Origin: Balanoglossus misakiensis
Taxonomy: Eukaryota > Animalia > Hemichordata
Reading direction: 5' to 3'
NCBI GenBank assembly: GCA_040954595.2
Contig: CM082581.2
Span: forward strand, 6,564,699-6,628,698
Length of the DNA stretch: 64,000 nt
Under the pieces are notes generated by a model. That model was not told the DNA's origin. It searched no databases and was given only the letters and a program-made list of their open reading frames with translations. The position numbers were made by a program, and so were the translations under genes. Positions 3,711-64,000 of the stretch are shown here, piece after piece. Numbering within the stretch: the stretch's first letter is position 1; each line of letters begins with the position of its first letter.

Positions 3711-6700
3711 TCACACACGAATGTTGTGCGTTACGGCCCTTGTGAACTCTGTACATGACGCATAGCCGCCCATGTCTCTGGTACGGACCTGGTCGGGAAA
3801 AAAACCCGAGAAACCATTTTTTTAAAACACACAAGAGCTCTGTTCTGCCCCTGACTGTAGCCACCACAACAGCGCTAGGACAGTTTTTCCATATGATCAT
3901 TTGAGGTACACACCAGAAATTGTCACCAACGTTCCATCAAAGTTAAATGTTAGGCCTACATTCTGTGAATAAGGCTTGATCAACCACGACTTTTTTACAC
4001 ATGTTCACTGAAATATTTCTTTTAAAAAAAGGGGCAAAATGAAAGACACTCACTTTCCCAATTTTGATGACCTTCTCGACTGCACTTTGGATCAAGTTAG
4101 CGTGGTGCTGCAAACTGAGAGAGAATGAAAAGACAAAAAAAATATTAAATCTAAATGTATTTCATCAAAATATCACAAAGACAGGTTTCCAATGCTACTG
4201 CTTACACTAACAAGAAGTGTCCCCCGTCAAGTTGATATTACTGATGTCACATTCAGTGGCAAGGGATTATATACTTACTTGAGATGACGTAGCATGTTGG
4301 AGGCACACAACAGCATGGCTGTAGGGTTGGCAAGATTTCTACCGACAGCCTGTGAAAAGGTGTGTCTGGCACCCTGCAAATGACAAGAAGACAGTCAGTC
4401 ACAGATTTTTCTTGCATTTGACCTTATACTACAGAGTACCTCTCTCAATTTGGTTTCATTTGACACAACCCTTATTACCCTGTACCAACCACTCTTTCAA
4501 TACTTTCAAGGCAATAGTCATTATTTTTCACAAAATTTTGACAATGCAAATTATACCCACTTGGTCTAGAATTAATGGGGGAAATGAGTGAAACACCACA
4601 TTTTGACAGCGAAAAATGTGGCATTCAAAGGATTAATATGGATAAACATGTTTAAAGTACCCAGGCTACATTCATATCAATATTGCTGTGTAACTAAACA
4701 ATATATCAGACTGACTTGAAAAAATAGAAATACTGGTACATTCTATCATCTTGTAAATTAGGAACCCTCTACATGTTCAATTTTCATCAATATTGCCCAC
4801 AAATTGACACTCAATTCTGTTCTCATGCATTTTGCAATATAAAAAAAACATCTAGAATTCTCAGATGCCAGTAATATGTCGTGACACAAACCAAATTCGC
4901 AGTACAGTATGTTTCTTAATCTAATTTGGCCCAGATCCCAGGGACATTAAGCATTAATAAAATTTATGAAAAGGCAATTACCATAAGAGTTATATATTAA
5001 AATGTCTTTTGATAGCACAGACTTCCGACAGAAATGCTAAGCGACATCCTTAACATCTGCATTAAGCTCTTTCGCTCACAAATTACATTGATTAGAGTCG
5101 TATTATGAGATTTCATCCAACAAACAAAGGCAGGCAAAGTATAATGAATATTATTGATCATTTTAAGACAATTATTTATTAACTGCTTTGCTGCTGGTAC
5201 GATGTTGCCATGGAAATCTCTCATCTGTACAGACTGACTGTTGTCATGGAGACTACCTAATGCACTCTGGAATGGAGCTTACTGTACTGAGTGCAAAAAA
5301 TTGTAATATTATTGACTTTGGTTAAGGTCAATGACTCAAATACTCCATGATTTTATGTCTCAGTGAAAATCTTTCTTTCTGGAGAAGACAGGAAACTTCT
5401 TTTTGCAGACACTCTTTGTTTTTGTGAGTAAAATTATACCTGAAGCATAAAATTCGCTTTTTTTGGAAAAAATTCATAAAAACAGACATTCAAAATTATT
5501 TATCATGGGGCTTCCATAAGCAATTTACACCAACATTTACTGCTGTGCACTGCATTAGTAGGGCTGACCCCCATCCCAACCCGGTATCCTTACGTGTATA
5601 TATAATTCTAATTAAGGTTCACCACAGCCTCCCACTCACCATCCCATCATACCTTGCAGCCTGGCACCAAACACAGTGAACTTACCGGCTCAAAGATGGC
5701 AAAGTGGTTGGAGTAGCTCTCGCCCGGCACAACACCGGCGCCACCAACAAGTCCGGCCGCTACGTTGTCAACTATGCTGCCGTACAAGTTAGGCATCACC
5801 ATGACGTCAAACTGGTGAGGGTTAGACACAAGCTGCATACAACAGTTATCAATGATCATCGCCTCAAATTTGATCTTGGGATACAATTCCGATATCTCTT
5901 GACAGCTTTGAAGAAACAAACCGTCACTAAGTTTCCTGCAGAAACAAAATCAGAAACACAAAATAAATATGAGCTTGATTTAACTGCCAACAAGAAAAGA
6001 ATATGTCTGCCGCTAGCCAGTGACAAGACTTGATCTGATACGAGTAACTATAGCAACTCATTTTCATATTTGGGAAACATGTCACGAAATCAGCAGTTTA
6101 GTTTACTGGTTTGATTTCACTGCAACTCAAACAATATGCAAATTGTGCACAGTGCTATTTTCACGTTGATATCTTGGTGGGACTTACATGATGTTGGCTT
6201 TATGCACTGCGGTGACCTTCTGTCTGTTGTGTTTTGTGGCGTAGTCAAACGCAAACTTGGCGATTCGTCTCGAGTTGGCCCTGGTTATGATCTTTAGGCA
6301 CTCAACAACTCCAGTCACGCTCTGCGATGGTTGAATATGAGACATGATTTCATCGTTACCAGGTGTACACATGGTTGAGTTTACCAGATGTCACCTTCAC
6401 AATCAGAGGTTGATAATTTGTTTGTGTATACCCTTCAGTCAACATGGTCCAATCCAAGATTGAGAGAAAAATCATGAAAATCACAAACAAAATGTCAGCA
6501 GTCAGGGCTTTGCACAGTCCAACATACCTCATGTTCCAGCGAACTGTATTCTCCCTCCGTCTGTTCCCTGATGACAACCAAATCCAGATTGCTGTGTTTT
6601 GTATGCAGGCCTGGTAAACTACGGCACCTCACCACATTAGCAAACATATCCAGCCCCTTCCTGTACAAAAAGTAGACAATGAGCGCTGAACTATGCTTGC

Positions 6701-9424: not shown

Positions 9425-11309
9425 ATGTCTGGGATACGAGGTCTGTGGCATTTGTGTCGGGTCGGACAAGTGAGTTATCATATTTACTTCATTATGTTTT
9501 GATGACCTCTATGGCATCTAAATAGTCGGCCTGTAAATACCGTGTATGTGGGTGTGGATCCAATGCCTGTGGGCAAAACCCATGGAGGCGGTACCTCCAT
9601 GGCAAAACCTTACACAGTCAGGGATTGTGACACAGCTAGTATACTCAGTGAACCACATTTAAATTAGAGTTTAGAGGGAGCACTGAGAATATAGCGAGTG
9701 AGACTATTCATACATGATCATTCAAATTTCAAGTGTGGCGATTCATAACATAGCTCAGCTGTAGTTTTAATAGCTCTTGGTTTTGCCTGTTGGTTTATGT
9801 GTTTAGACTGGTCAACAACAACAACAAGATTACTAAGTTCTGTATGGTCTTCCTGTCTAACACACAAGCCAACCGGCAAAACCTACCCATATCAGTAATT
9901 CAATGGATTGTATATACAATACAGACTGAATGAGATATTTCACATGTACCTAATAACCAGCCGTATTGTTATTAGCATTATCAATGATTTTGTCTTTTCA
10001 CTGCTGCAGAGACAGGTGTGGCAGATTCCTGGTGTTACAAGATGCTCTGTAGGAAGTCCATACTGCAGCCACCCAATCAGTCGGTATCCAGTTCCGGAAA
10101 AGAAGGATTTGCCAGAAGACATGGTCCAGCAGATGGATGAAGTGGAAGAAAAAGTTGGTCACTTTTGAATGAGCATTTATTGCATGTGTCATTACTGTTT
10201 CTGTCATTGCCAATATATAGATACGAGTCTGGGACTAACAGCAACGTTGCAGATTATGAAATTTATCCAGCCCATCTTCCAATGTACGAAACTGCTTGTT
10301 GACAGCAATGGGTGATCTGTAAGCCCTTTCACCCCCATGCAGTTCTATAGAGGTCCAACTTTACCATAGAAAGCAATGGATTTGGGTCAAACCATTGTGA
10401 TGAAAGGGTTCAACGTGTTTATATTAAAGATCTATCCTCATTATTTTTTTCTCCAACAGTCTGGGTTTTTACCAAATGTCTTTAAAGCCCTGTCTCACAG
10501 GCCGGACGAGTTCCGCGCCTTCTTCGCTTACTACGATGCCCTGATGAACAAAGAGACCGGCAGGCTGACCAAAGCTGACAAAGAGATGATTGTTGTGGCC
10601 ACAAGCGCGCACAATAACTGTCTGTACTGTGTCGTAGCGCACGGAGCACTCTTGAGGGTTTTTTCAAAGAACAGAATCCTAGCTGACCAGGTAGGTGACA
10701 ATATTGACGACTTCTCAGAACAGTTTCTTGCTAAAACATGCTTATCTGCATATTTATATTTAATGAACATTTGGTGATGTAAATTTTAGAGCATTCGACC
10801 AAATTGGTGAAGGACTCTTGGCTACAGGGCATTGATCTCACCAAGATCTGACTGCACTTATTTAAATAAGGCATTGAATCAGGGATGTATGTCCGTAATT
10901 AGTCCCTCCTAAATGTGTATTCCTTGAAGGGTGCCTACCAGAACGTACAGTGACTGTACTAGTACACACCTTCAAATCGCAATGGCACATTCCAAGCACA
11001 CAGAGTTCACATCCAGCAATATGTCTGTCCGTCTCTCAGGTGGCAACCAACTGGCAATGTGCCGACCTGGATGACAGGCAGAGGGCCATTCTGGAATTCG
11101 CCATGCTGGTATGCAAGGGAGAGAGCGTCACAGACGACAGGTTTGCGGCGCTGGAGACGCACGGATTCGATCGGGAGGATGCCTGGGACATAGGAGCCAT
11201 AGCCGCCTTGTTCGCGCTCTCCAACCGTATGGCGCATCTCGCCAACATGCGTCCAAACGACGAGTTCTACACGTTTGGACGTATTCCGCGAGAAAAGAAA
11301 GACAAGTGA
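9425..11309 (+). CDS. AhpD-like / carboxymuconolactone decarboxylase family peroxidase-related enzyme (about 229 aa, 4 exons)
   Basis: Exons 9425-9469, 10010-10153 (alternative in-frame acceptor 10016), 10460-10690, 11040-11309, all phase 0 GT-AG. HPISRYPVP...EKSGFLPNVFKALSHRPDEFRAFFAYYDALM...EMIVVATSAHNNCLYCVVAHG...SNRMAHLANMRPNDEFY matches the bacterial uncharacterised peroxidase-related family, including the AhpD CxxCxxxH motif. Confidence 0.9.
9757..9885. mobile_element. Hairpin family B, degenerate copy 2 (intron 1 of the AhpD-like gene)
   Basis: Arms GGTTTTGCCTGTTGGTTTATGTGTTTAGAC and GTCTAACACACAAGCCAACCGGCAAAACC are inverted repeats and resemble the arms of 8613-8746. Confidence 0.6.
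10320..10413. mobile_element. About 90 bp MITE (family A, copy 1) with CCCTTTCA/TGAAAGGG termini
   Basis: Core AGAGGTCCAACTTTACCATAGAAAGCAATGGATTTGG shared with 12449-12542 and 56788-56885; a degenerate partial copy lies at about 7765-7833. Confidence 0.7.
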
Positions 11310-12905: not shown

Positions 12906-15065
12906 TTAATCCTGGGCCTGGGCGGCCTCCCTCTTCTGTTGATCCATGTACGCCTGGACTGACCTCCAGAGGGCGGTAATGTTACCGGCACCGAAGCCAG
13001 AGGCGCCGTGCCTTTGGATGATTTCCAAGAAGAAGGTGTTCTCCTCAAATATTGGCTGCGTGAAAACCTGCATGAGATACCTAGGGAAAGACGTAGAGAG
13101 AGAAATCACCTGTCAGTTTTGATCTTTGGGAACAGCTCAATATCTGATCTTGCAAAAGTGAAATCTATTACTTGCACATTTCCTTCACGTCTTACCTTTG
13201 TGCATCAGACGACACCTCACCATCAAACTCTCCTGCATCAGCCTCTGAATCAAGCAGTATTCCATAACTCTTCATCAATTCCACATTCTCACCGACATCC
13301 TGAATTTCCTTTAACTTGCCAATCTGTTGGTGGTGACAATATTAATTTATTTAAGTGGGCTATTCCATTTTGCTTCATATATGCAACCTGGTAAGGCATG
13401 GGTAAATTATGCAAGACAGTCTTTTGATCAGCTGGGAGTGAACACTATGAGAATGACACCCCGTTTTCTAGGGTAAAAAATGCCTCTTTTCCACTGAGGG
13501 CGCACTTCACAACTATCCCAGAAAGACTTCACTAAGTTGTTGAGGCAATGACAGGCTATAGAAAAAAGTCCCTGTTCAGAAAACATCACAATTTATTATT
13601 CATCCACTGAAAGAATGACCTTTGATCCCCACCTCAGAGTAGTAAGTTTCCGGAGGAACAATGACAGGTAGATTTTCATTCCTAAGTGTGGACACAGCAT
13701 TGACGATGTTTGACGTATGGAGACCAATATGCTGTATGCCAGGACCGCCATGATTCTCTATAAATGTATCGACTTGGTTGGGACCTGGAGGAGAGAAAGT
13801 GCACCATCAGATTATTACAAATGTATAAAAACTGTCCATTCAGTTTTCTGAGAAGTGCCAGAGTCAAGTGGACTGTATAATGTATTAATATCAGTAGGCT
13901 CCAAATATGGATTTGGGGCTACCAACTTTGGAAAATAAAAGTTAACTTCGAGCCCCGAATACTAATATTTAAATTTGCATGTACCTTGTCCTGGTAGCGG
14001 TTCCGCAATGACAATTTTGACATCTGGAAGATCAGACTCTGTCTCTTTCGCAGGTGAACAAAGGTGTGTCTCGGCACACCTCCAGTATTGCATTGCCTTC
14101 AGTCTCATTCCCATATCGTCCCCCTGAACTAAGAAACCATCATCGACGTCCTCAGTCCTGCAATAATCATCAAAAGTGAATTATTGTCAGTGTCAGTGTA
14201 CAATACCATTTATTCCCCCAGGACCAGAACATGATATGTGAATAACACAAATGGTTAAGCACTTAAAACTATAGCCAGTCAACATTATTCAATTGGGCGT
14301 TTTGACCAGAGACCGGTTCATCAGCTTTTATCTACCGGGTAGTACACAAGACTATTGTCAGGATAACATTATTTACCTGTTCACAAGGAACCTCTTGTAG
14401 CCGAAACACTTCTCATAAAACTCCAAAATAGAGTCTGTCGTGCCATTAGGGCAAGCATATGTAACATGGTCAAAGTGAGATACCAACATATTATTTGAAG
14501 ACATGCCACTAGAAGAGGATTGTCTGACGGGTGATTGGTCCGTGAGTTTAAATCCTGGCAAAAATTTGCCTTTATACTTGGAAGTGTCGAGTAAAGAATG
14601 GACTACATCTCCAACGTTAGATTTCACCACAGCGTATCTGACGGTTCCCATGCCCATGGTATCATGCCAATCTGTCGGTTCGTGTAAAACACCTGCACCA
14701 TTGTCTCTAGCGCGATTGAGCACTTTGTCAACGTCCGTTACCTCAAATGCCACATCGACAACGGAATTAACGCATCTGTGTTGAGAACTTGAGCTTGGGG
14801 AAAGTGTGTCCTTCCTTGTTATAGTGTCCCTCGAACGATTTACCGGTTCATGGCCTTCCAGCACGGGTGACCCATGTACCGGGAAGGAATGTGTCCGTTC
14901 ATTAATGATAAATACCGCCGATCCGCTTCTAACAGCCCACTGGTTAAGCGACCCGGTCCGCCTTTCTGCAAACAACCTAAAGTGAAGACAGTTTGTAAAT
15001 TTCCGGAGCATCTGCAAGCCATTTTTCACGTAAAGTTGAACGTGATGTACACCACTGGCGGCCAT
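12906..15065 (-). CDS. HPDL: 4-hydroxyphenylpyruvate dioxygenase-like protein (about 438 aa, 5 exons)
   Basis: Exons 15065-14377, 14157-13985, 13784-13633, 13323-13196, 13080-12906 (1317 nt, in frame, GT-AG). Iron ligands in [15 protein letters not shown] and FFLEIIQR. C-terminal [15 protein letters not shown] and [19 protein letters not shown] fit HPDL rather than HPD (GNFxxLF). Confidence 0.9.
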
Positions 15066-15468
15066 GATGTAACCAGGGGTTAAGGGTCATCATGAATTAA
15101 AAGCTCCCTGGCTTGTCAGGAAAGTGCAGATTTGGCGTTTCGATTGCAAATTTATTAATGCAAATATGAAATTTATCAAGCAAACTGAGTTTTTATGACT
15201 AGAAAATGACTATAATACCACGAAAACTCGGACTTATGTATCACTGACAAAAAATATTCCCCAAAAGAATTACTTGGGCATCATTCTAAGCAGACAGATG
15301 CCTGAGTTAAAGGGTCTAAATTTTAGAAGAACGTAAGCGTGACCTCATAAAAGGTCGTTGCACGTTAGGGCAGTATCTGTGCGAAGCTTGTGTGGGCCGG
15401 GGGTGGGTACGTTACTAAGTATTTGAAACAAGCGCTGAAGGAAAAATTTGCCTGTCGGATTTCACAGC
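15066..15468. promoter_or_regulatory. Putative bidirectional promoter between HPDL and POLL
   Basis: Only 403 bp between divergent ATGs; octamer ATGCAAAT at 15158-15165; TGACCT-N6-AGGTCG at about 15340-15357; GC-box-like GGGGTGGG near 15400. Confidence 0.6.
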
Positions 15469-18400
15469 ATGAGTAATACGACTAACCGGAAAACATCTAA
15501 AAAACGAGAATCCTCCCGAGATTTCGAACCCCGGAAGAAAAGGGCGAAAACGGACGCCCCTCAACCTGTGTCATGTAAACAAACCAACGCACAGCTGAGC
15601 TCTGGTGATGATGATGGTGGGTTTTTGCGCGATATCAAAGTGTTCGTTCTCCAAGCTGGTCTTGGAAAGGCCAGGGCAGATATTTTCAGTAAGCAAGTCA
15701 AGAGGTATGGAGGCGCCGTCCATGATAAAATCACGGACGAGACAACGCATGTTATTGTGGATGAACAAATGGAAATTGACAGAATGCTGCGAATTCTCAA
15801 AATGGACACCCCTCCCACAAATGTCAGGTTTGCGAAGGCAAACTGGTTAAGCAACTGCCTCTCTGAGCGCGAGGTAATCAGTTTAGGAGATTTTGAACTC
15901 GGCATTGAAAAGTTTATCAAAGTTCAACAGAAGACACAGGAAACTCCCAAGGAAAAGAACAGTGAGGTCAAAGGTGAAGTTTCTGATGATGCTAAAAAAG
16001 ATGCGGTTGCCATGGAAACTAAAGTCAAGGACGAGGCTGTCCCTGGCACAAGCATGTCAAACATACAAAGCAGTAAAGAAGACAGAGATGACACAACATC
16101 CAATGCAAAATCAGTTCACAGTGCAGACGGCCAAGTCTTTGCTCCTGTCCGTCGCTATGACAGCGATGACAGCAGTTACGAGCCTAGTGATGATGATGAC
16201 TATGCTTCCACCTTAAGTACATCGGGTGTTAGTTCAGCAACTTCAACTCCAAATACATCTCCTCAGAAACTTCCAGTAAGTGTTTGAGGGACAATGCCCA
16301 TTCAACTGTGCACCTCATCAAAATAGCATGTATATTTTTACCAGTCCATTATTAATATTGTCAGTATTGTTGACAAATAAATGTAAACACTAGACTGTAT
16401 TTGTAAGCTTAATACTGGGTATAAAATGTTTATAAAATGGCAGTTGATAAATGCATTGTAAAGAATTTTATTTCGTTTTTGACATCTTAGAAAGGGAACT
16501 GGGTCTGTTCCAAAGCTGTCAGTAAAAAGCCGATAAATCACAACAAACACATCACCGATAAGCTGGAGGTAAGTGTTACAAGAAGTCTTTCTTTATCAGA
16601 AACTACTCTAGAGAGATGACAAATGTTGAAACATTGGTATGAATGATCACAGCGTTAATGTGTGTTTCTCCCTCTTAATTTTAGCTGCTTATGGAAACCT
16701 ATAAGAACACAAACGACCAGTGGCGAGCGCTAGGGTACTCCAAAGCCATCATGGCTTTGAAGAACTATCCCAAAGAAGTTACAAGCTGGGAGGTAGTAGG
16801 ATCTTCTTGTAAACTGTTTCTCTGTACGCTAACTGTCATATAAATTCTTTTAATCACATATTGTAGTCTCCAATTAGACTGAGTGTGATCATGTCAAATT
16901 TCTCCATTGTGTTTCTACATGTAGGAAGCAAATGAAATCCCTGGAATTGGAAAGAAGATGGCAGACAAGGTCTGGGAGATTGTTCAAAGCGGACACCTGA
17001 GAAAGCTGGATCATGTCTGTCAGGGTGAAGATGTGGCAACAATCAATCTCTTCAATAAGATTCATGGTGTGGGGCCCACTGTTGCCAGGGACTTCTACCA
17101 ACAGGTATCCATCATTTGCATATTTAATCAAGTTGCCATAACATTGCTTTGTTCCAGCAATTTTTCCAGAGGTGAAGTTTGACCTGGCCACTGAGAAATA
17201 GGTTGGTAGAATATTGATGGAGTTTTTATTCACCCGCAGAGTAATTTACTACCGGTAATAATGATCATCGTATTTTTCAGGGTTTCAGGACAATAGATGA
17301 TTTGAGGGAAAAGGCCAAACTGAGCAAACAGCAGAAGATTGGGATTAAACATTTTGAAGACTTCTTAGACCGGATGCCAAGAGAAGAGGCCGCAGAGATT
17401 GAAAAAGTTGTAAGCAACACACTTGGCTCTGGCCCAGTGAGCAAAATGTGAATGCGAAATATGCATGTTAAATTATTCCAAGCCAAATTTTGATTGTAAG
17501 AACCAACTAATATTTTATGAAGTAATGCAAAATATGATTGTCTCATTTTGTAGGTAGTTGACATGGTCCATTCTATCAACCCAGGCCTGATAGCAATGGC
17601 CTGTGGGTCTTATCGCCGTGGGAAACCAAACTGTGGCGATGTGGATGTTCTGGTTACCCATCCAGATGGCCATTCTCACAAGGGGGTCTTTCAAAAAATT
17701 CTGGCAGGGCTCAGGGCTACAGGTAATACTTTATTTTCATCTTCAAAATCACACACACACAAAAGAATTGAAGTATTGAGGGAAATTTCTGTGATTAATC
17801 CCAACCTGAGCATTTACAAATTTGACTGTCAAACCTGGGACATTGTCCTTTTTTGTGTTTTGCAGGTTTCCTGACAGATGATCTGGTGAGTCATGAAGAC
17901 TCGGGTGAGCAGAAGAAGTATCTTGGAGTGTGTAAGTTACCCGGTGAAAATAGAAAAGTGAGTACATTGTACAGTGTTGCTGTTCTGTGCTTAGAGCATC
18001 TCCTCATCATAGTTGCTGAGAGGTCTGCATGAAAAAGTACAAGTACATGACTTGTTTTACTTTCTACGATAAATTACCAAGTCTCGCAAGATTTCGAAAT
18101 GAGCATAAATTCATCTATTCTGCTGAAAGTATGATTGACTATTCATCATCATGACTGTTTACAGTATCGCAGATTGGATATCATAGTGGTGCCGTACCAT
18201 GAATATCCGTGCGCCATCATGTATTTTACTGGTTCAAGCCACTTCAATCGATCCATGAGATCTTTGGCTGGGAAAAAGGTAGGTCTAACCTTCTGTTTAA
18301 CACATGACTGGATTATCTATTGTGGCTGCCAGTTTGTTCGTACACTGATGCTCTGCAGGACTCATGCACCATTACCGTTTTGAGAGTATGTGCTAGCGCC

Positions 18401-19944: not shown

Positions 19945-20844
19945 ATGGCTGGACCAATGAGTTGTATTGAGGTAAACGGATACTTATTTCTACCGTATTT
20001 TGACAAGCAGAAACTGGAAGACCGCGTCGTGGACACTTTCAACTTTCGACGCCATGATGTGGTGGTCAGTGGTTTTCCGAAGTCCGGCAATACGTGGCTG
20101 ATAGAAGTTCTGAAATCCATGTACAGCGACTGGGGGCTCGTCCGCATGGACGGCGCAGCCGAGGCAACGATTGTCGAGGAGCGCACGGTGTTCAAAATTT
20201 TCCCGGGGATACGGAAGCGAGTCGTGGAGACGACCAGTCACGAAGACCTGCCGTCGCCGCGGCTGTTGCGGACACACCTTCCGGCGACGATGTTCCCCCT
20301 GCAGGCCGCCAGAGACAAAGGCGTCAAGGTCATCCACATCAGCCGAAACCCAAAGGACGTGTGCGTGTCCACCCACCACTTTTTGAAGGCTTTCGTCCAC
20401 GGCGCCTACTCGCCCGGCGATTTCGAGCAGGCAGTCCGCGATTTCGTGGAAGACCGAATCCCGTACTCGCCTTGGTTGAAACACGTCGCCGAGTGGTTCG
20501 AGCTGGGAGAAGATGACGACTCTGTCCTTCACGTCACGTACGAAGAGATGAACGCAGACTTGCGAGGGGCCGTGAAGAAAATCGCGACTTTTCTCCAGCG
20601 CCCCTTGACCGACGGAGACATCGAGAGGGTCGTGGCATCCACCACAGTCGAGGCAATGCGACATCGCCTGTCCGAATTCTTTATCGTGGACCAGGTGCTG
20701 ATACCCGAAGATCAAAATCCATTCGTGAGAAAGGGCATTGTCGGTGATTGGAAAAACCATTTTACGCCAGCACAGAGTGAACTTTTCGATACTAAAATCG
20801 GGGAGAAAGTCAAGAAAATAAACCCGAACATTCCCTATCAGTGA
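19945..20844 (+). CDS. Cytosolic sulfotransferase (SULT family), single coding exon, 299 aa
   Basis: 5'-PSB loop SGFPKSGNTW, catalytic His in RLLRTHLP, 3'-PB RNPKDVCVS, YEEM, C-terminal RKGIVGDWKNHFT; AATAAA at 21286-21291. Confidence 0.93.
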   Translation: MAGPMSCIEVNGYLFLPYFDKQKLEDRVVDTFNFRRHDVVVSGFPKSGNTWLIEVLKSMYSDWGLVRMDGAAEATIVEERTVFKIFPGIRKRVVETTSHEDLPSPRLLRTHLPATMFPLQAARDKGVKVIHISRNPKDVCVSTHHFLKAFVHGAYSPGDFEQAVRDFVEDRIPYSPWLKHVAEWFELGEDDDSVLHVTYEEMNADLRGAVKKIATFLQRPLTDGDIERVVASTTVEAMRHRLSEFFIVDQVLIPEDQNPFVRKGIVGDWKNHFTPAQSELFDTKIGEKVKKINPNIPYQ

Positions 20845-39597: not shown

Positions 39598-41730
39598 TCA
39601 CACGCGGTCTTCGGCGTGGCGCGCAGAGAACCGATAATTCGTTCTCCTCGCCGTCCTCAAGCCACGAAAGGGTGGCGGTTGCGCCACTTCCTCAAACTCT
39701 GGCGATGGCTTTCTCTCGCTGCGATTCTCCGCTTCATCCGGGACCTGCCACGCCATCGAGGAAGGCGGCGGTGGCCTTGGCGGTGGCGAGTGCGGTACAG
39801 ACGAGGCCGGACAGTGCCACGGCTTCTCCAGGACTGGTTGGGATGATCGCCGGGGTGCGTCGTGCAACTGCTGGTGCTGTAGCTCTGAGGCCAATAGTGG
39901 CAGGTGCGATGAGGAACTGAAGTGTGCGACTGCTCTCCTCCGAGATTCCGGAAGTGGCGGCGGTGGTGGTGGTGGGGGTGGTGGGGGTGGTGGAGATGGC
40001 GGAGGTGAATACACAGGAGGGCTCCGATACGGTGGCGAGAGACATGTCGGGAGTGGTGCCTGGAACGATTTCGAAGGTGATTGTTTGCTGCGGTTCGGTT
40101 GTGCCGGAGAGAACGTCCGCTCTTCGGCGCTAATGGCGGCGGTGCTGTGCGAAGCATGTTCTCCGGAAGACACATGCGCCGTGGATAACTCCCGGCGCGT
40201 GCGCGGTATACACGGCTGCCTTATTTGCAATATGTTGTGAAAGTGGAACTCCTCCGATAAACTCCCTTGCGGACTGCTGGTCAGTTCCGTCTCGCTCGCG
40301 TAATTGTCTCTGACAGCGTACTCGCCAAACGCCCGACTTTCGTCATTGTAATCACCGATACCATACCTGGCGCACGCGCTGGTTTCAGAGTCTGCGAACA
40401 CCTGGCCCGCTTGATTCGACGTGTCCGGAACGACATAGGCAGAGGACGGCGTTGTTGAAGAAGCAACGCCAGTGGTCCTTTCGTCGTCGAGTCCGCCGGA
40501 CGCGCGCAGTGCGGCGCTGGGAATGGGCAGGTTGATAGAAATGCCGCTGGATTCCCCGAGTTTGCCCGCCTCCACTTTCTGTAGTCTCTGCGCGGAGATG
40601 ATGTTAAGGCCCGGGTTCGCGTGGACCCCACTGCTGCTCGACAAGACCTTGTTCGTCTTGAGCTTGAGAATGGCCTTGAATTCGTTTCTGAATTTCTCAT
40701 TCATCCAGCAGTAGACTATCGGGTTCAGGCACACACTGGTCATCGCAAACCAGTGGCAGATGATGTAAACCAGAGAGTCGTGCTGAAAAGCCGGGTGGTA
40801 CCAGTAGGCCAACAGGTAGACATTGATGGGCAGCCAGCAAATGGCGAAAATCACAACCACTATAACCAACATCTTGACCATGCGGCGTTTGGTCTTTTCC
40901 TGGAGGTTGAACTGTTGCGCGGTGATGAAGTCGCTGATGGCCGTTCGGGACCACAGCTTCCGGGCTATCCGGATGTAGGCCGAGATTATCAAGAGGAGCG
41001 GCAGACAGTACTGGAGAATTATGGTCGTCAGTTGAAAATGGCGGGCAAAGTCCCACGACGGCGGGCTGGGGATACAGGCGTACACGTCCAGGCTCTCGAA
41101 ATACTCCAAGGACCTGTACACCGCCATCGGCACGGGCAGGATGATGGCGCAGATCCAGATGGCACTTAAGGCACACAGCGCTGTCACCATGGTGATGCGG
41201 GGTCTCAACGGGTGCAGGAGCACTTGGTGGCGGTCGATGGCGATGGCGGCCAAGGTCAGGGTCGACACGTAGATGGACACGTTCATCGAGTAATCCACGG
41301 AATGGCACATGACATCCCCGAAAATCCAGCTCCGGGTGATGTTGCGGACGAGGAGGAACGGGGCGTTGAAGATGGTCAGGATGATGTCCGAGAACGACTG
41401 ACTGGCCAGGAAGAAGTTCGTCACCGTCCGCATCTGTTTCCGGCGAACCACGATGTAACAGACCAGCCCGTTGCCGATCAGGGACAGGACAATAACCAGC
41501 GCGTAGAGACAGATTAGCGTCACTTTCACCCGCAGGTTAAATGGGTGGAACGACTGCAGGAAAGCACTGTCCCTGTTCTTGTTCAGGGCGTTATTGAGCA
41601 GATCTTCCAAGCTCAGACCGGACGAGTTGCCACCAGTGCTCCAGTTGTGCCAGACCCCGAAGGCGTCACCAGAAGAATTTGTAGGTCCACGAGTCGGCGA
41701 GGGGTTGAGAAAATTCTCCCAAAACGACAT
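39598..41730 (-). CDS. GPR83: GPR83-like class A neuropeptide-type GPCR, 710 aa, single coding exon
   Basis: Seven hydrophobic segments with GN (TM1), DRHQVLLHPLRPRI, CWLP, HWFAMTSVCLNPIVYCWMNEKFR. The DRHQV..HPL.PRI, IARKLW and HWFAM..C.NP..YCW.NE.FR patterns are characteristic of GPR83. First ATG at 41730 (the ORF track starts earlier at a TTG); a splice acceptor TTTTTTGTTATTTCAG at about 41873-41888 implies upstream non-coding exon(s). Confidence 0.85.
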   Translation of the reverse strand: MSFWENFLNPSPTRGPTNSSGDAFGVWHNWSTGGNSSGLSLEDLLNNALNKNRDSAFLQSFHPFNLRVKVTLICLYALVIVLSLIGNGLVCYIVVRRKQMRTVTNFFLASQSFSDIILTIFNAPFLLVRNITRSWIFGDVMCHSVDYSMNVSIYVSTLTLAAIAIDRHQVLLHPLRPRITMVTALCALSAIWICAIILPVPMAVYRSLEYFESLDVYACIPSPPSWDFARHFQLTTIILQYCLPLLLIISAYIRIARKLWSRTAISDFITAQQFNLQEKTKRRMVKMLVIVVVIFAICWLPINVYLLAYWYHPAFQHDSLVYIICHWFAMTSVCLNPIVYCWMNEKFRNEFKAILKLKTNKVLSSSSGVHANPGLNIISAQRLQKVEAGKLGESSGISINLPIPSAALRASGGLDDERTTGVASSTTPSSAYVVPDTSNQAGQVFADSETSACARYGIGDYNDESRAFGEYAVRDNYASETELTSSPQGSLSEEFHFHNILQIRQPCIPRTRRELSTAHVSSGEHASHSTAAISAEERTFSPAQPNRSKQSPSKSFQAPLPTCLSPPYRSPPVYSPPPSPPPPPPPPPPPPPLPESRRRAVAHFSSSSHLPLLASELQHQQLHDAPRRSSQPVLEKPWHCPASSVPHSPPPRPPPPSSMAWQVPDEAENRSERKPSPEFEEVAQPPPFRGLRTARRTNYRFSARHAEDRV

Positions 41731-56885: not shown

Positions 56886-58263
56886 CCATAACCGAGGAGA
56901 GAGGCAATGCGGACGTATAGTGCAGCTAATAGTTGTTGTGTACGGAGTATGTTCCAGACTTATCACTCGATGACAAACAGTGCACTCACTTCGTTGTTGT
57001 CAGGTTTCGTGTCACCCCGCGGGTAGCAACTCACCGACGCAAATTCATTGAAAGTGCATTGAACAGTTATTGAAAATTCCAAAGTTCTTCGAGAATTGCC
57101 CAAGGAAGGTTTCTCTTCTTCCGTCAAAAGAATTTCCCGCCTGTGCCCTGAAAATGGATCCTTAGCAGCGTGGGCAAACGCGAATACCCTCATGAAAAAT
57201 TGAGTCTAACCACGCTAGTTTCATATTTTCTACTTCTTGTCCCCAAGTCCTTGCTTATTACTGTCTCATTTGCATGGGCGGTTGATCGATGTATTTCTTT
57301 TAAAAACGCGTTTCCATCTAACATATACCGCTCGCCGGCGCGTCGCCAGTTATTTATTTTGGAATTCGAAGTTGCAAAGATGGTTAGTTCTCCAGGCCGG
57401 GTAAGCGGAGTGTAATCCTACTTCATTGGAAAGTAATAAGAATGCCATAGCTAATTGTTGCACATCAACAATGCTAGCGATGTCGCGCGAGCATGATTCT
57501 CATGTAAAAACGAAGCACCAATTTCTTCTGTATTTTCAGTATTTATTCCAGTCAATGATTACTGGGGTTATCGTCGAGATACATCACATTGTCTACGTGC
57601 AAGAAACGTTTCTTGAATAAGAAAGACACTGATTAAAATGCAACTGCATACTATACCTCCGTGCTATGTATGCTAATTACTTTTAATCAAGCGTGGTGTA
57701 GCCTTTCTCTCAGGAAATGTTGAGCCGGCCAAGGCCGTCACTAGTGACGCAGTCAAAAACGCTCAGTTATGGAACAAATGTGTTGACAACGTCAATGCCG
57801 TGACTGAACAAAGGACATACAAAAAAAGGTTTGTAGTGGGGCTTTGCTTTGAAAAAAAGTATAATTGATCTACTGAAGTAACTATAGGCCTAGTAGTCAC
57901 AACTTTGATAACGTGCACATAGAAGTGAAAAACACATTGGCCTTTCTTTGAGTGATAGAAAGTATTCTTCTGCCATAGTATCTTAGAGACGGGGAGATTG
58001 CCAGGCGATATTCCAAATCACGTACTGAATTTTCATTTAGAACCTAATGCAGGTCAAAAGTCGTGGTGCATTTTGTAGCTGGCTCCTTGTAGATCGAAAT
58101 TTGCAGAGTTTGTCACGCAAATATTGCTAGTTATCTATTGATTTGTTTTTTTTTGCCTGATACAATTCTTCAGTCAAATTTCTTCAGATTCGACCTAAGA
58201 TACAGAATTTTTTTCCGTTTCCAAAAACAAACCACATTCACTCCACAAACTCTATGTCGATCG

Positions 58264-58398
<135 letters not shown>

Positions 58399-59996: not shown

Positions 59997-61559
59997 ATGA
60001 GGCTATTATTTGCTGTATCGACTCTTCTGGCCGTCGCAAACTGCAGTGTCGACGTCGAGCACCCGTTTCGATCGAAGCTGTGGATATGTACGTCTTCCAC
60101 GGTCAGGGGGTATGACGACGCCGCGTATGATTTTGTTCCAACGCACGGCGTCGAGTGTTTCGATGAGATAATGGCGTTACCCGAGGAGCTGGAAAACGAG
60201 ACGCCGATTCACACGATTGAGGTGTTGAAGGTTGTCAGTAATTACATCGGACCGACCAATACTTTCAGAGCCGTGGACATTGTCAGTGACAAGTTGGATG
60301 CAGTAATGCAAATGGTAAAGCATCAATACTGTAATGATCAAAACGATTGCGAGTACTTAAAAAATCTCGGAGCATTTCGAACCTTTACTTTAATATACAT
60401 GTATAGCACACTACAAAGGGTATGTTCAATGATGTGAACGGAGATACAGACTCTGCCAGCAAACTGACTTGTTTGCCATTCTGAAACACCTTCGCGCTGG
60501 TTTTCCCTCTTTTACCGTTCACCTTTGTCTATATCCTCCCGCGCAATACCACTTCATCTGATTGCAGCTTTTTCGCATTTTTACAGGGATCCGAGATCTC
60601 TGGCGACCTATCGGTTAATGAGTGCTTAAATTGTACAGCCAAAATCTACGCTGGCAATAGACTCGCCAAAACGTGCAGTGAAATGGAGGTAGGTTTTAAT
60701 TGAAACATTTATTAGTCGGTGATAAGGCAATACGTTCACTTAACTTTGCCTTTGGAGGTTAGGTTTGAGTTATATTGATTATACTTCATTAACCAGGCAG
60801 TGTTATATGGGTGATCGAGTTCTTCCTGCTGATAAGTGCGTTTCAAAGTCAGAAATAGGACTCTATCTAGCCAAATAGAAAGGGGTACATGTCATACTGC
60901 TGCCGGCATTTCCATACGATATGTCTATACCAGCTTCGTGTTTTGCATTGTGAATGATTGACTCACGGTTACTAGAAGAAGACGGTTAGGAAACTATTTT
61001 TTCTCCATTGTTAGATGCTCGCCTCGGTAAACACTTAGTGTAAACGAAAGATATCAGGTGCTAACGAGCCTGGCCATACGAATAAACAGACAGAATAACT
61101 GACCGCTCGGTCAAAATGACGTCATTACCCCTACAATCCAAAGCAAACCATACTCATGTTTACGGAATTGCTTGCACGCAGTAACTGTGATTGACTCTAC
61201 CCAAATTAGTCACGAGGGCGCGATTTGGTTCACGATAACCGTGCGTTTATTCAGGATAAGATTCTGGTTCAATATCTGTGATTTCGCTAACGTTTTCTGG
61301 CAAAATATTGTTGTATCAGGTCTATTTAAAATAAGTTCTCGGGAATAAATCTTAAATCTTGACAATTGATTAACAATTTTTTATCATTTTTTCTTCTATT
61401 TAGATATGTCCTGAGAAACTCGCCAAAGCAATAAACTGGCATCCATCGGGGAATGTCACATTTTCGTCAAGTGTCGTGTACTGTTCTTACAGATGTTCTG
61501 AAAATGCCTCCACCTACTACTGCAAGTTCTATCAACCTGAACACGATTTGGAATTGTAG
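59997..61559 (+). CDS. Orphan secreted cysteine-rich protein (about 226 aa, 3 coding exons), possibly helical-cytokine-like
   Basis: Exons 59997-60419, 60587-60688, 61404-61559, phase-0 GT-AG introns with good pyrimidine tracts; acceptor at 59971-59973 before the ATG. Signal peptide MRLLFAVSTLLAVANCS, 11 further Cys, sequons NET, NCT, NVT, NAS; ends EHDLEL*. AATAAA at 61679-61684. Confidence 0.75.
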
Positions 61560-62676: not shown

Positions 62677-63875
62677 TTATCTTCTAAATCCTCTATAGAT
62701 GTTTTCTTCGTCGACACGCCCTGCAACGTCGGTCCGCGTAGCGTCAAGGGCGTCCCTTTTGCCTCTCGAATCGTTTGTAGTGGCAAACTTTTCCGTTGCG
62801 GCCGTCAGATTTGATGTGAACACTTCCGCGGCCAGTTCTTGCCATGTTGAAATCGAAACGTCTCCAGAGTTCAGTTCTTGCCGTGCTGTAGTTGATACGC
62901 TTTCTGGATCTGGCTCGAACGATGCGGTAAATAACCCCCGCGCGGCACTGGTCGTAGTCATGGCATCATCGACCGCCTGAGTAGTAGTGTCGTCCAACCC
63001 GTGCATCCTTTCGACGTCAATCTTGCAACTTTGAACGTAAAGCTTCTGTTGTTTGAACACTTGATCCAGCACGGTTGCATTGATCCCGTCCGATCGTATA
63101 TTTAATCTCGGAAGGCTGTCGTCTCTTGCGTCTTCTAAGAAACCTTCATCGAACAACTGCGTATGAAAAAGAATGTCATATGGTGATGTATGATGTACGA
63201 CTTCACCTCGCACGACAATCTACAAATGCAAGAGAAAACACAATCTCTCCCTCCCCAGAGCCCAACAAGCGAATGGCCATTCCTATTCTGTAGACAATTA
63301 ATTTATACCACCACCATCTTACGCTGAAATATTTTTAATCAAATACCAAACAGTTAACTTTACCTTAGAGCTAAATTTGACGATAACGCGCCTCAGAAAG
63401 TATTCCACCTCAAGCACCGAAACACACCGACAGGTATCTCCAGAAGCGCACCATTGGTTAGATTTGACGAGTGTCATAAATTGTTGAAACCAGCGTAGAC
63501 CCCGCCGATAAAACTTCAGTCTTTCCTGCATTAAAATTGGAAGAAAGGAAATGACTATTTCTCCTCAACCAACGAAACAGCAACGAAAGGGAATGTGTAT
63601 ATATCGACGCCGGTGGCGCACTAACAGTTTTCAAAACTGTCCGAGTTGCCAGTTCGAGAGATAGTATGAAAAGAGTCCCTCGTGCACCGAAATGTCGAAT
63701 GTGGTTTTGATTACTGCTAGTAGTTTTTTTTTATATCTTGGAAAATAATAAGTCACTGCTTTACCGTTTCGTTGACTTGACTATGACGCGGCAATGGATT
63801 TGGCATGCCTAATTCATCCAGGTAGCTCAGTTGAAGTCCATCCATGGTGGTCGTCCCATTTGGGCAGCTGTTGAT
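62677..63875 (-). CDS. 3' part (last three coding exons) of a putative long-chain four-helix cytokine-like protein with a Thr-rich C-terminal extension
   Basis: Exons 63875-63765 (111 nt, INSCPNG...LGMPNPLPRHSQVNET), 63525-63364 (162 nt, ERLKFYRRGLRWFQQFMTLVKSNQWC...KFSSK), 63219-62677 (IVVRGEV...YRGFRR*); all phase 0, GT-AG, open throughout. The gene model is well supported; the product call is an inference; the 5' exons lie beyond 64000. Confidence 0.7.
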
Positions 63876-64000
63876 CTAAATAGGAAATTAAAAACAATTA
63901 AAAAACATAGGACGGTATAGTTAAGGGGAACGTACAACATCATTAGTGGGTAGTAATTTCTAGTATTCCCCAAGGGTGGTACAAGTGGGCAAATATCTTC

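Follow-up and report, generated by a model that had tools for sequence, protein, structure and literature searches.

The window analysed here is the whole of a 64,000-nucleotide (nt) stretch from the hemichordate Balanoglossus misakiensis (assembly GCA_040954595.2, contig CM082581.2, positions 6,564,699 to 6,628,698 of the forward strand). Near its right-hand edge the minus strand carries the visible part of a three-exon gene (exons A, B and C; Table 1), for which an earlier sequence-only reading had proposed a helical cytokine of the IL-6/G-CSF/CNTF type. Judging from gene structure and predicted protein, its product is, in our view, probably a helical cytokine of long-chain class I, with a JAK/STAT receptor as its target.

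The earlier description of exons of 111 nt and 162 nt followed by a long terminal exon, all with phase-0 junctions, is borne out by the splice sites and by the spliced frame, which stays open for 250 codons in the visible part. Both introns and the upstream acceptor are in phase 0, all three exon lengths are divisible by three, the acceptors show pyrimidine tracts with TAG or CAG, and both donors read GTAAAG. The terminal exon is indeed long, but two thirds of it encodes a polar tail that was absent from that description. The window takes in just 125 nt of the upstream intron; any exons for a signal peptide and helix A would lie past its edge at position 64000.

Coding potential was assessed with a codon-position (three-periodic) Markov model that had four other genes of the window as its training set. 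The annotated frame was the best of six in every exon (4.6, -1.6 and 27.1 bits for A, B and C, respectively), and both introns scored -21 to -39 bits in all frames. Compared with equal-length stop-free stretches, a null whose regions may contain real exons, a share of 0.035 of 1489 stretches scored as high as exon A and 0.010 of 613 as high as the first 165 nt of exon C, while exon B alone fell within the null (0.154 of 651). Among the 16 strong-site phase-0/0 open exons found on both strands of the window, a count whose criteria were fixed after the locus had been seen, A and B are the only two that follow one another within 600 nt. The three-exon gene is almost certainly real.

Table 1. Coordinates of the candidate gene, its parts and the other features of the window
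Feature	Position	Strand	Details
Exon A	63875-63765	minus	111 nt, phase 0/0; residues 1-37 (37 amino acids), Pro/Gly-rich (7 of 37), putative AB loop
Exon B	63525-63364	minus	162 nt, 54 amino acids, phase 0/0; two predicted helices, putative helices B and C
Exon C	63156-62677	minus	480 nt including stop, terminal exon
Exon C, 5' part	63004..63156	minus	residues 92-142, putative CD loop and helix D
Exon C, 3' part	62677..63003	minus	residues 143-250 and stop, tail
RGKR	62755..62766	minus	residues 222-225
Intron A-B	63526..63764	minus	239 nt, GT-AG, phase 0
Intron B-C	63157..63363	minus	207 nt, GT-AG, phase 0, four in-frame stops
Upstream intron, 3' end	63876..64000	minus	pyrimidine tract, TAG acceptor
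AATAAA poly(A) signal	62650-62645	minus	27 nt past the stop
Convergent three-exon gene model	59997-60419, 60587-60688, 61404-61559	plus	all introns phase 0
Isocitrate dehydrogenase (Iso_dh) exon	5686-5940	minus	
CMD/AhpD-like peroxidase-related gene	10457-11309	plus	at least two exons
HPDL exon	14376-15068	minus	
BRCT-bearing gene	start near 15469	plus	
Cytosolic sulfotransferase (Sulfotransfer_1)	19945-20844	plus	single exon
Rhodopsin-family receptor (7tm_1)	39598-41730	minus	single exon
(GAT)n microsatellite	58263-58395		pure, about 44 units

The predicted protein runs as a Pro/Gly-rich segment of 37 residues, a helix of 20, a loop of 15, a helix of 16, a loop of about 25 and a Pro/Gly-free segment of 26. 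Exon A has a Cys at residue 4 and N-glycosylation sequons at 6 and 35. For exon B, modelled alone by AlphaFold2 as a single sequence without alignment (mean predicted local distance difference test score 65.5), the helices fall at exon residues 2-21 and 37-52, and the loop of 13-15 residues between them holds three Cys. At the start of exon C, an acidic loop of about 25 residues precedes 26 residues free of Pro and Gly that contain Cys135 and form a candidate helix D, assigned from propensity only. The claim that the exons encode amphipathic helices held for the first helix of exon B (p 0.005 against shuffles), but not for the second (0.11) or for the helix of exon C (0.13).

The tail comprises 108 residues, is acidic, contains about 25% Ser plus Thr and two N-glycosylation sequons, lacks any hydrophobic segment and ends with a basic pair; it scores as coding in the same Markov model (14.2 bits vs -55 to 0.7 in the other frames). 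Neither its Ser/Thr-rich composition nor the RGKR within it had been mentioned earlier. RGKR is a furin/convertase-type site and also a Gly-Lys-Arg amidation signal, and a cut there would free a 25-residue C-terminal peptide. The visible protein has five sequons in all, Cys at 4, 63, 69, 71 and 135 with none thereafter, and no transmembrane segment (highest 19-residue hydropathy 0.97). The sequons, cysteines and convertase site would fit a secreted protein, any signal peptide of which would be encoded outside the window.

The human IL-6 sequence given in the supplement of PMC11039321 served as the template for hand-scored, ungapped BLOSUM62 comparisons, while LIF, OSM and CNTF were compared as site III fragments from the same supplement. 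Three blocks were found: residues 35-59 match IL-6 helix B (score 17, 6/25 identical), residues 74-91 match helix C (score 3, 3/18 identical, with the exon end closing both), and residues 124-142 match the last 19 residues of IL-6 (score 16, 4/19 identical). These scores were reached by 0/2145, 56/2187 and 1/2181 null windows, respectively, counts that are optimistic because block edges and template were picked by hand and because the null is small and unmatched for amphipathic helices, consisting of six unrelated proteins (three of the five HPDL matches described below, with the near duplicates P0002 and P0005 omitted, and three window proteins). The blocks are collinear with IL-6, the distance from first to third being 64 residues vs 62 in IL-6, and the last residue of IL-6 aligns to Met142, at the onset of the polar tail. 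This register also sets Gln61 opposite a Gln that comes after helix B in CNTF and LIF but is not shared by OSM.

The IL6 gene has corresponding exons of 114 and 147 nt, sizes that correspond to 38 and 49 codons when counted along the printed sequence. The first block spans the A-B junction, where VNET-ERL had been matched to IL-6, but the intron lies one codon away from its IL-6 position instead of at the same place. The other proposed match to IL-6, KFSSK with FLQKK, ends at an exon end in both genes; its block is the one with the lowest score.

A signature of the form C-x9-C-x6-G-L-x2-[FY]-x3-[LF] has been published for IL-6, G-CSF and MGF (PMC3271213). Its second half is present here as G-L-x-x-F-x-x-x-M from exon-B residue 9, which recurred in 200,000 shuffles at a rate of 0.0007 in place and 0.007 anywhere in the exon, and 9 of the window's 81,477 six-frame positions match a motif of this type.

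Several results weigh against the cytokine interpretation, beyond the optimism of the block statistics. Both signature cysteines are missing, with Pro29 and Arg39 at their positions. At site III, an aromatic hot spot marks the start of helix D (Trp157 in IL-6; PMC7378365), and an F-x-x-K motif is found in LIF, OSM and CNTF (PMC11039321 supplement); in our ungapped hand alignment this position is Gly115, with no F-x-x-K nearby. The assignment of helix D, made earlier from VLDQVF onwards, gains from the third block but suffers from weak amphipathicity and from two IL-6 core positions that fall on the polar residues Gln128 and Lys136. Homology searches used single exons of 37-159 residues, a length that restricts their sensitivity, and word searches returned no relatives. 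In phmmer, exon B gave two matches at E<=0.001 among 1,835,955,588 representatives, both of them tandem-repeat open reading frames, and the block matches to IL-6 were not significant. Pfam yielded no significant family for any single exon, and no cytokine family at E<=10 either for these three or for the core of exon C, and PDB sequences, IL-6 included, gave no significant match for any single exon. A 108-residue tail is atypical for IL-6-type cytokines, and ATTTA motifs in the 3' region do not exceed the window background (8 in 2.26 kb vs 2.4 per kb). Finally, runs of phase-0 introns are unspecific: of 132 genes that a screen in lamprey recovered with 0-0-0-0 phases, a single one was an interferon (10.64898/2026.05.30.728932).

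On the other side stands the gene layout. In long-chain class I cytokines the last three introns are in phase 0, and a loop exon of about 90-120 nt is followed by a two-helix exon of about 145-180 nt and a terminal helix exon. The candidate, with 111, 162 and 480 nt and all junctions in phase 0, has this layout, which is not family-specific. It likewise shows long AB and CD loops, a short BC loop, helices of about 20 residues (helix D by propensity) and no transmembrane segment. An IL6R-like (IL-6R/gp130-like) receptor and a JAK have been reported from Saccoglossus (PMC13203501), and several type I helical cytokine genes from amphioxus (PMC9010856). The claim of a JAK/STAT ligand is supported in part: gene structure, helix and loop pattern and collinear IL-6 blocks favour a long-chain helical cytokine, and a hemichordate receptor and JAK are on record. 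The IL-6/G-CSF/CNTF labels attached to it find no support: the protein has neither the signature cysteines nor an aromatic residue at site III, and phase-0 introns are common to class II cytokines and to many unrelated genes. We have rejected membership of the IL-6/G-CSF subfamily proper on the same absences. Growth hormone (GH) and prolactin have four conserved Cys in two disulfides, one of them C-terminal, a pattern that amphioxus GH-like proteins are described as lacking (PMC9546618). The candidate also departs from it, with Cys at the five positions given above and no C-terminal pair; the Cys of the AB loop and that of the last helix would presumably match the long disulfide of GH. Because the candidate lacks the IL-6/G-CSF signature, the site III residue and the GH cysteine pattern, we class it no more narrowly than as a probable long-chain class I cytokine.

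For such a protein the following mechanism can be proposed. Exons beyond the window would supply the signal peptide and helix A. The AB loop would come from exon A, helices B and C from exon B, and both the CD loop and helix D from the first part of exon C. One disulfide may join Cys4 to Cys135, and another may link two of the three BC-loop Cys. The protein would be secreted as a pro-cytokine, the glycosylated tail of which would be cut at RGKR by a convertase, and the bundle would activate JAK/STAT by dimerising a gp130/Domeless-type class I receptor. Given that the site III aromatic residue is missing, bridging of two chains via sites I and II, as in growth hormone, would be likelier than an IL-6-like hexamer.

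The alternative that survives best is an unrelated, lineage-restricted secreted protein or prohormone, in which the helical, Cys-containing part would be another small domain or a pro-region and the RGKR peptide perhaps the active product. We regard this as unlikely. In its favour, no search produced a homologue or family, the convertase/amidation site is clear and accompanied by a C-terminal basic pair, significant amphipathicity is confined to one of the three helices, and phase-0 exons are common. Against it, there is a single convertase site with no repeated peptide copies, the two best IL-6 blocks are collinear and rarely matched by the null, with the match stopping exactly where the tail starts, and the exon sizes agree with the long-chain cytokine layout.

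A class II helical cytokine of interferon/IL-10 type, signalling via a receptor of CRFB type in an antiviral or immune role, appears improbable. In class II cytokines all introns are in phase 0 and exon 1 encodes both signal peptide and helix A; the three visible junctions are in phase 0, the first exon lying outside the window. With a second exon of about 60-80 nt, interferon and IL-10 genes differ from the candidate, whose loop exon of 111 nt would take that place. Interferon genes are in phase 0, and lamprey IFN2 and IFN3, with four exons (0-0-0) and the last two fused, display the same visible pattern (10.64898/2026.05.30.728932). Amphioxus has interferon-like ligands and class II receptors (10.64898/2026.08.17.745176, 10.64898/2026.05.30.728932). 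Moreover, a protein of about 320 amino acids, as expected here, would have escaped the published structural screen because it kept secreted proteins of fewer than 300 amino acids (10.64898/2026.05.30.728932). Cys135, followed three residues later by an acidic one, is reminiscent of the CAWE motif (PMC4929537), and this Cys could pair with Cys4; however, residues 135-138 read C-K-I-D, which keeps the Cys and the acidic residue and has Ile in place of Trp. The block matches, too, are to IL-6, although the blocks were scored against IL-6 with no interferon among the templates. A decaying pseudogene or chance open frames, to which the unremarkable coding score of exon B and the lack of relatives would be agreeable, is very improbable in the face of canonical splice sites, 250 open codons, the best frame of six in all exons and a poly(A) signal.

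Returning to the class I cytokine, its likeness to known systems is uneven. With the gp130 family (IL-6, IL-11, CNTF, LIF and OSM) and G-CSF it shares a phase-0 loop exon, a phase-0 two-helix exon and a terminal helix exon of similar sizes, together with the weak collinear matches to IL-6 helices B, C and D, the G-L-x-x-F motif and the Gln after helix B (CNTF and LIF). Unlike these proteins, it has no signature cysteines, site III Trp, F-x-x-K or significant sequence or profile match, its BC loop is longer and Cys-rich, and it carries the Ser/Thr-rich tail with RGKR. Amphioxus GH-like and other type I helical cytokines likewise belong to an invertebrate deuterostome and have five-to-six-exon genes (PMC9546618, PMC9010856), whereas the GH-like protein, compared by description and not by sequence, has 208 amino acids and no long tail. 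Drosophila Unpaired 1-3 are invertebrate four-helix JAK/STAT ligands of a Domeless-type receptor (PMC7378365, PMC13203501), as the candidate would be; however, no single exon of the candidate had a significant Pfam match, and Unpaired has been reported from insects. The interferon-like proteins of lamprey and amphioxus resemble it in their phase-0 introns and, in lamprey, in the four-exon form with fused last exons (10.64898/2026.05.30.728932); they differ in having about 200 amino acids, five helices and a CAWE-type motif, while the candidate lacks the Trp and has a longer loop exon. Further literature lies behind these comparisons (PMC12284397, PMC1963337). As for the tail, a helical cytokine domain also precedes a C-terminal extension that has basic sites and is glycan-rich or cleavable in thrombopoietin and oncostatin M, which offer an analogy of layout only, with no sequence evidence of special kinship.

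The convergent gene on the plus strand encodes 226 amino acids with a hydrophobic N-terminus and 12 Cys, and no family or relative of it was found. It has in common with exon B the motif M-x-x-V-K..Q-[WY]-C-x5-C (9/54 identical), and the donor follows the first Cys of this motif after 29 residues, compared with 28 in the candidate. By eye, it also reads F-x3-H-G where helix A of CNTF and LIF ends in Y-x3-Q-G (PMC11039321 supplement). The likeness to exons A and B is faint and its statistics are marginal, and the second and third exons of this gene do not rise above the coding null. It may be a diverged paralogue of the candidate, which on these similarities is possible but doubtful.

The remaining genes of the window offer no cytokine-specific clue. 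The HPDL (4-hydroxyphenylpyruvate dioxygenase-like) exon gave five matches among 885 candidates, with identities of 72% in Ptychodera flava, 60% in Glandiceps talaboti, 55% in Saccoglossus kowalevskii and 42% in two amphioxus proteins, which agrees with an acorn-worm origin of the window. Head to head with it lies the BRCT-bearing gene, polymerase-lambda-like by eye. The rhodopsin-family receptor, GPR83-like by eye, has a Pro/Ser-rich C-terminal tail that, at about 300 residues, is unusually long, and the sulfotransferase gene is GC-rich relative to its surroundings. An isocitrate dehydrogenase exon, a peroxidase-related gene and a microsatellite complete the list (Table 1).

The literature searched held no report of a hemichordate helical cytokine, and published surveys describe IL-6-type ligands as missing in acorn worms. 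Because the case rests on gene structure and weak sequence matches, the candidate remains a lead. In its fullest form, which we put forward tentatively and as rather unlikely to hold in every part, it would be a hemichordate ligand of gp130/Domeless type, a pro-cytokine that releases a second peptide at RGKR, with the convergent neighbour as a diverged sister cytokine. If the candidate is indeed such a ligand, IL-6-like long-chain cytokines with the vertebrate exon layout would be older than the chordates. A real acorn-worm ligand would also provide a testable partner for the orphan ambulacrarian receptor and would place the origin of the vertebrate-type cytokine gene layout as early as the deuterostome ancestor.
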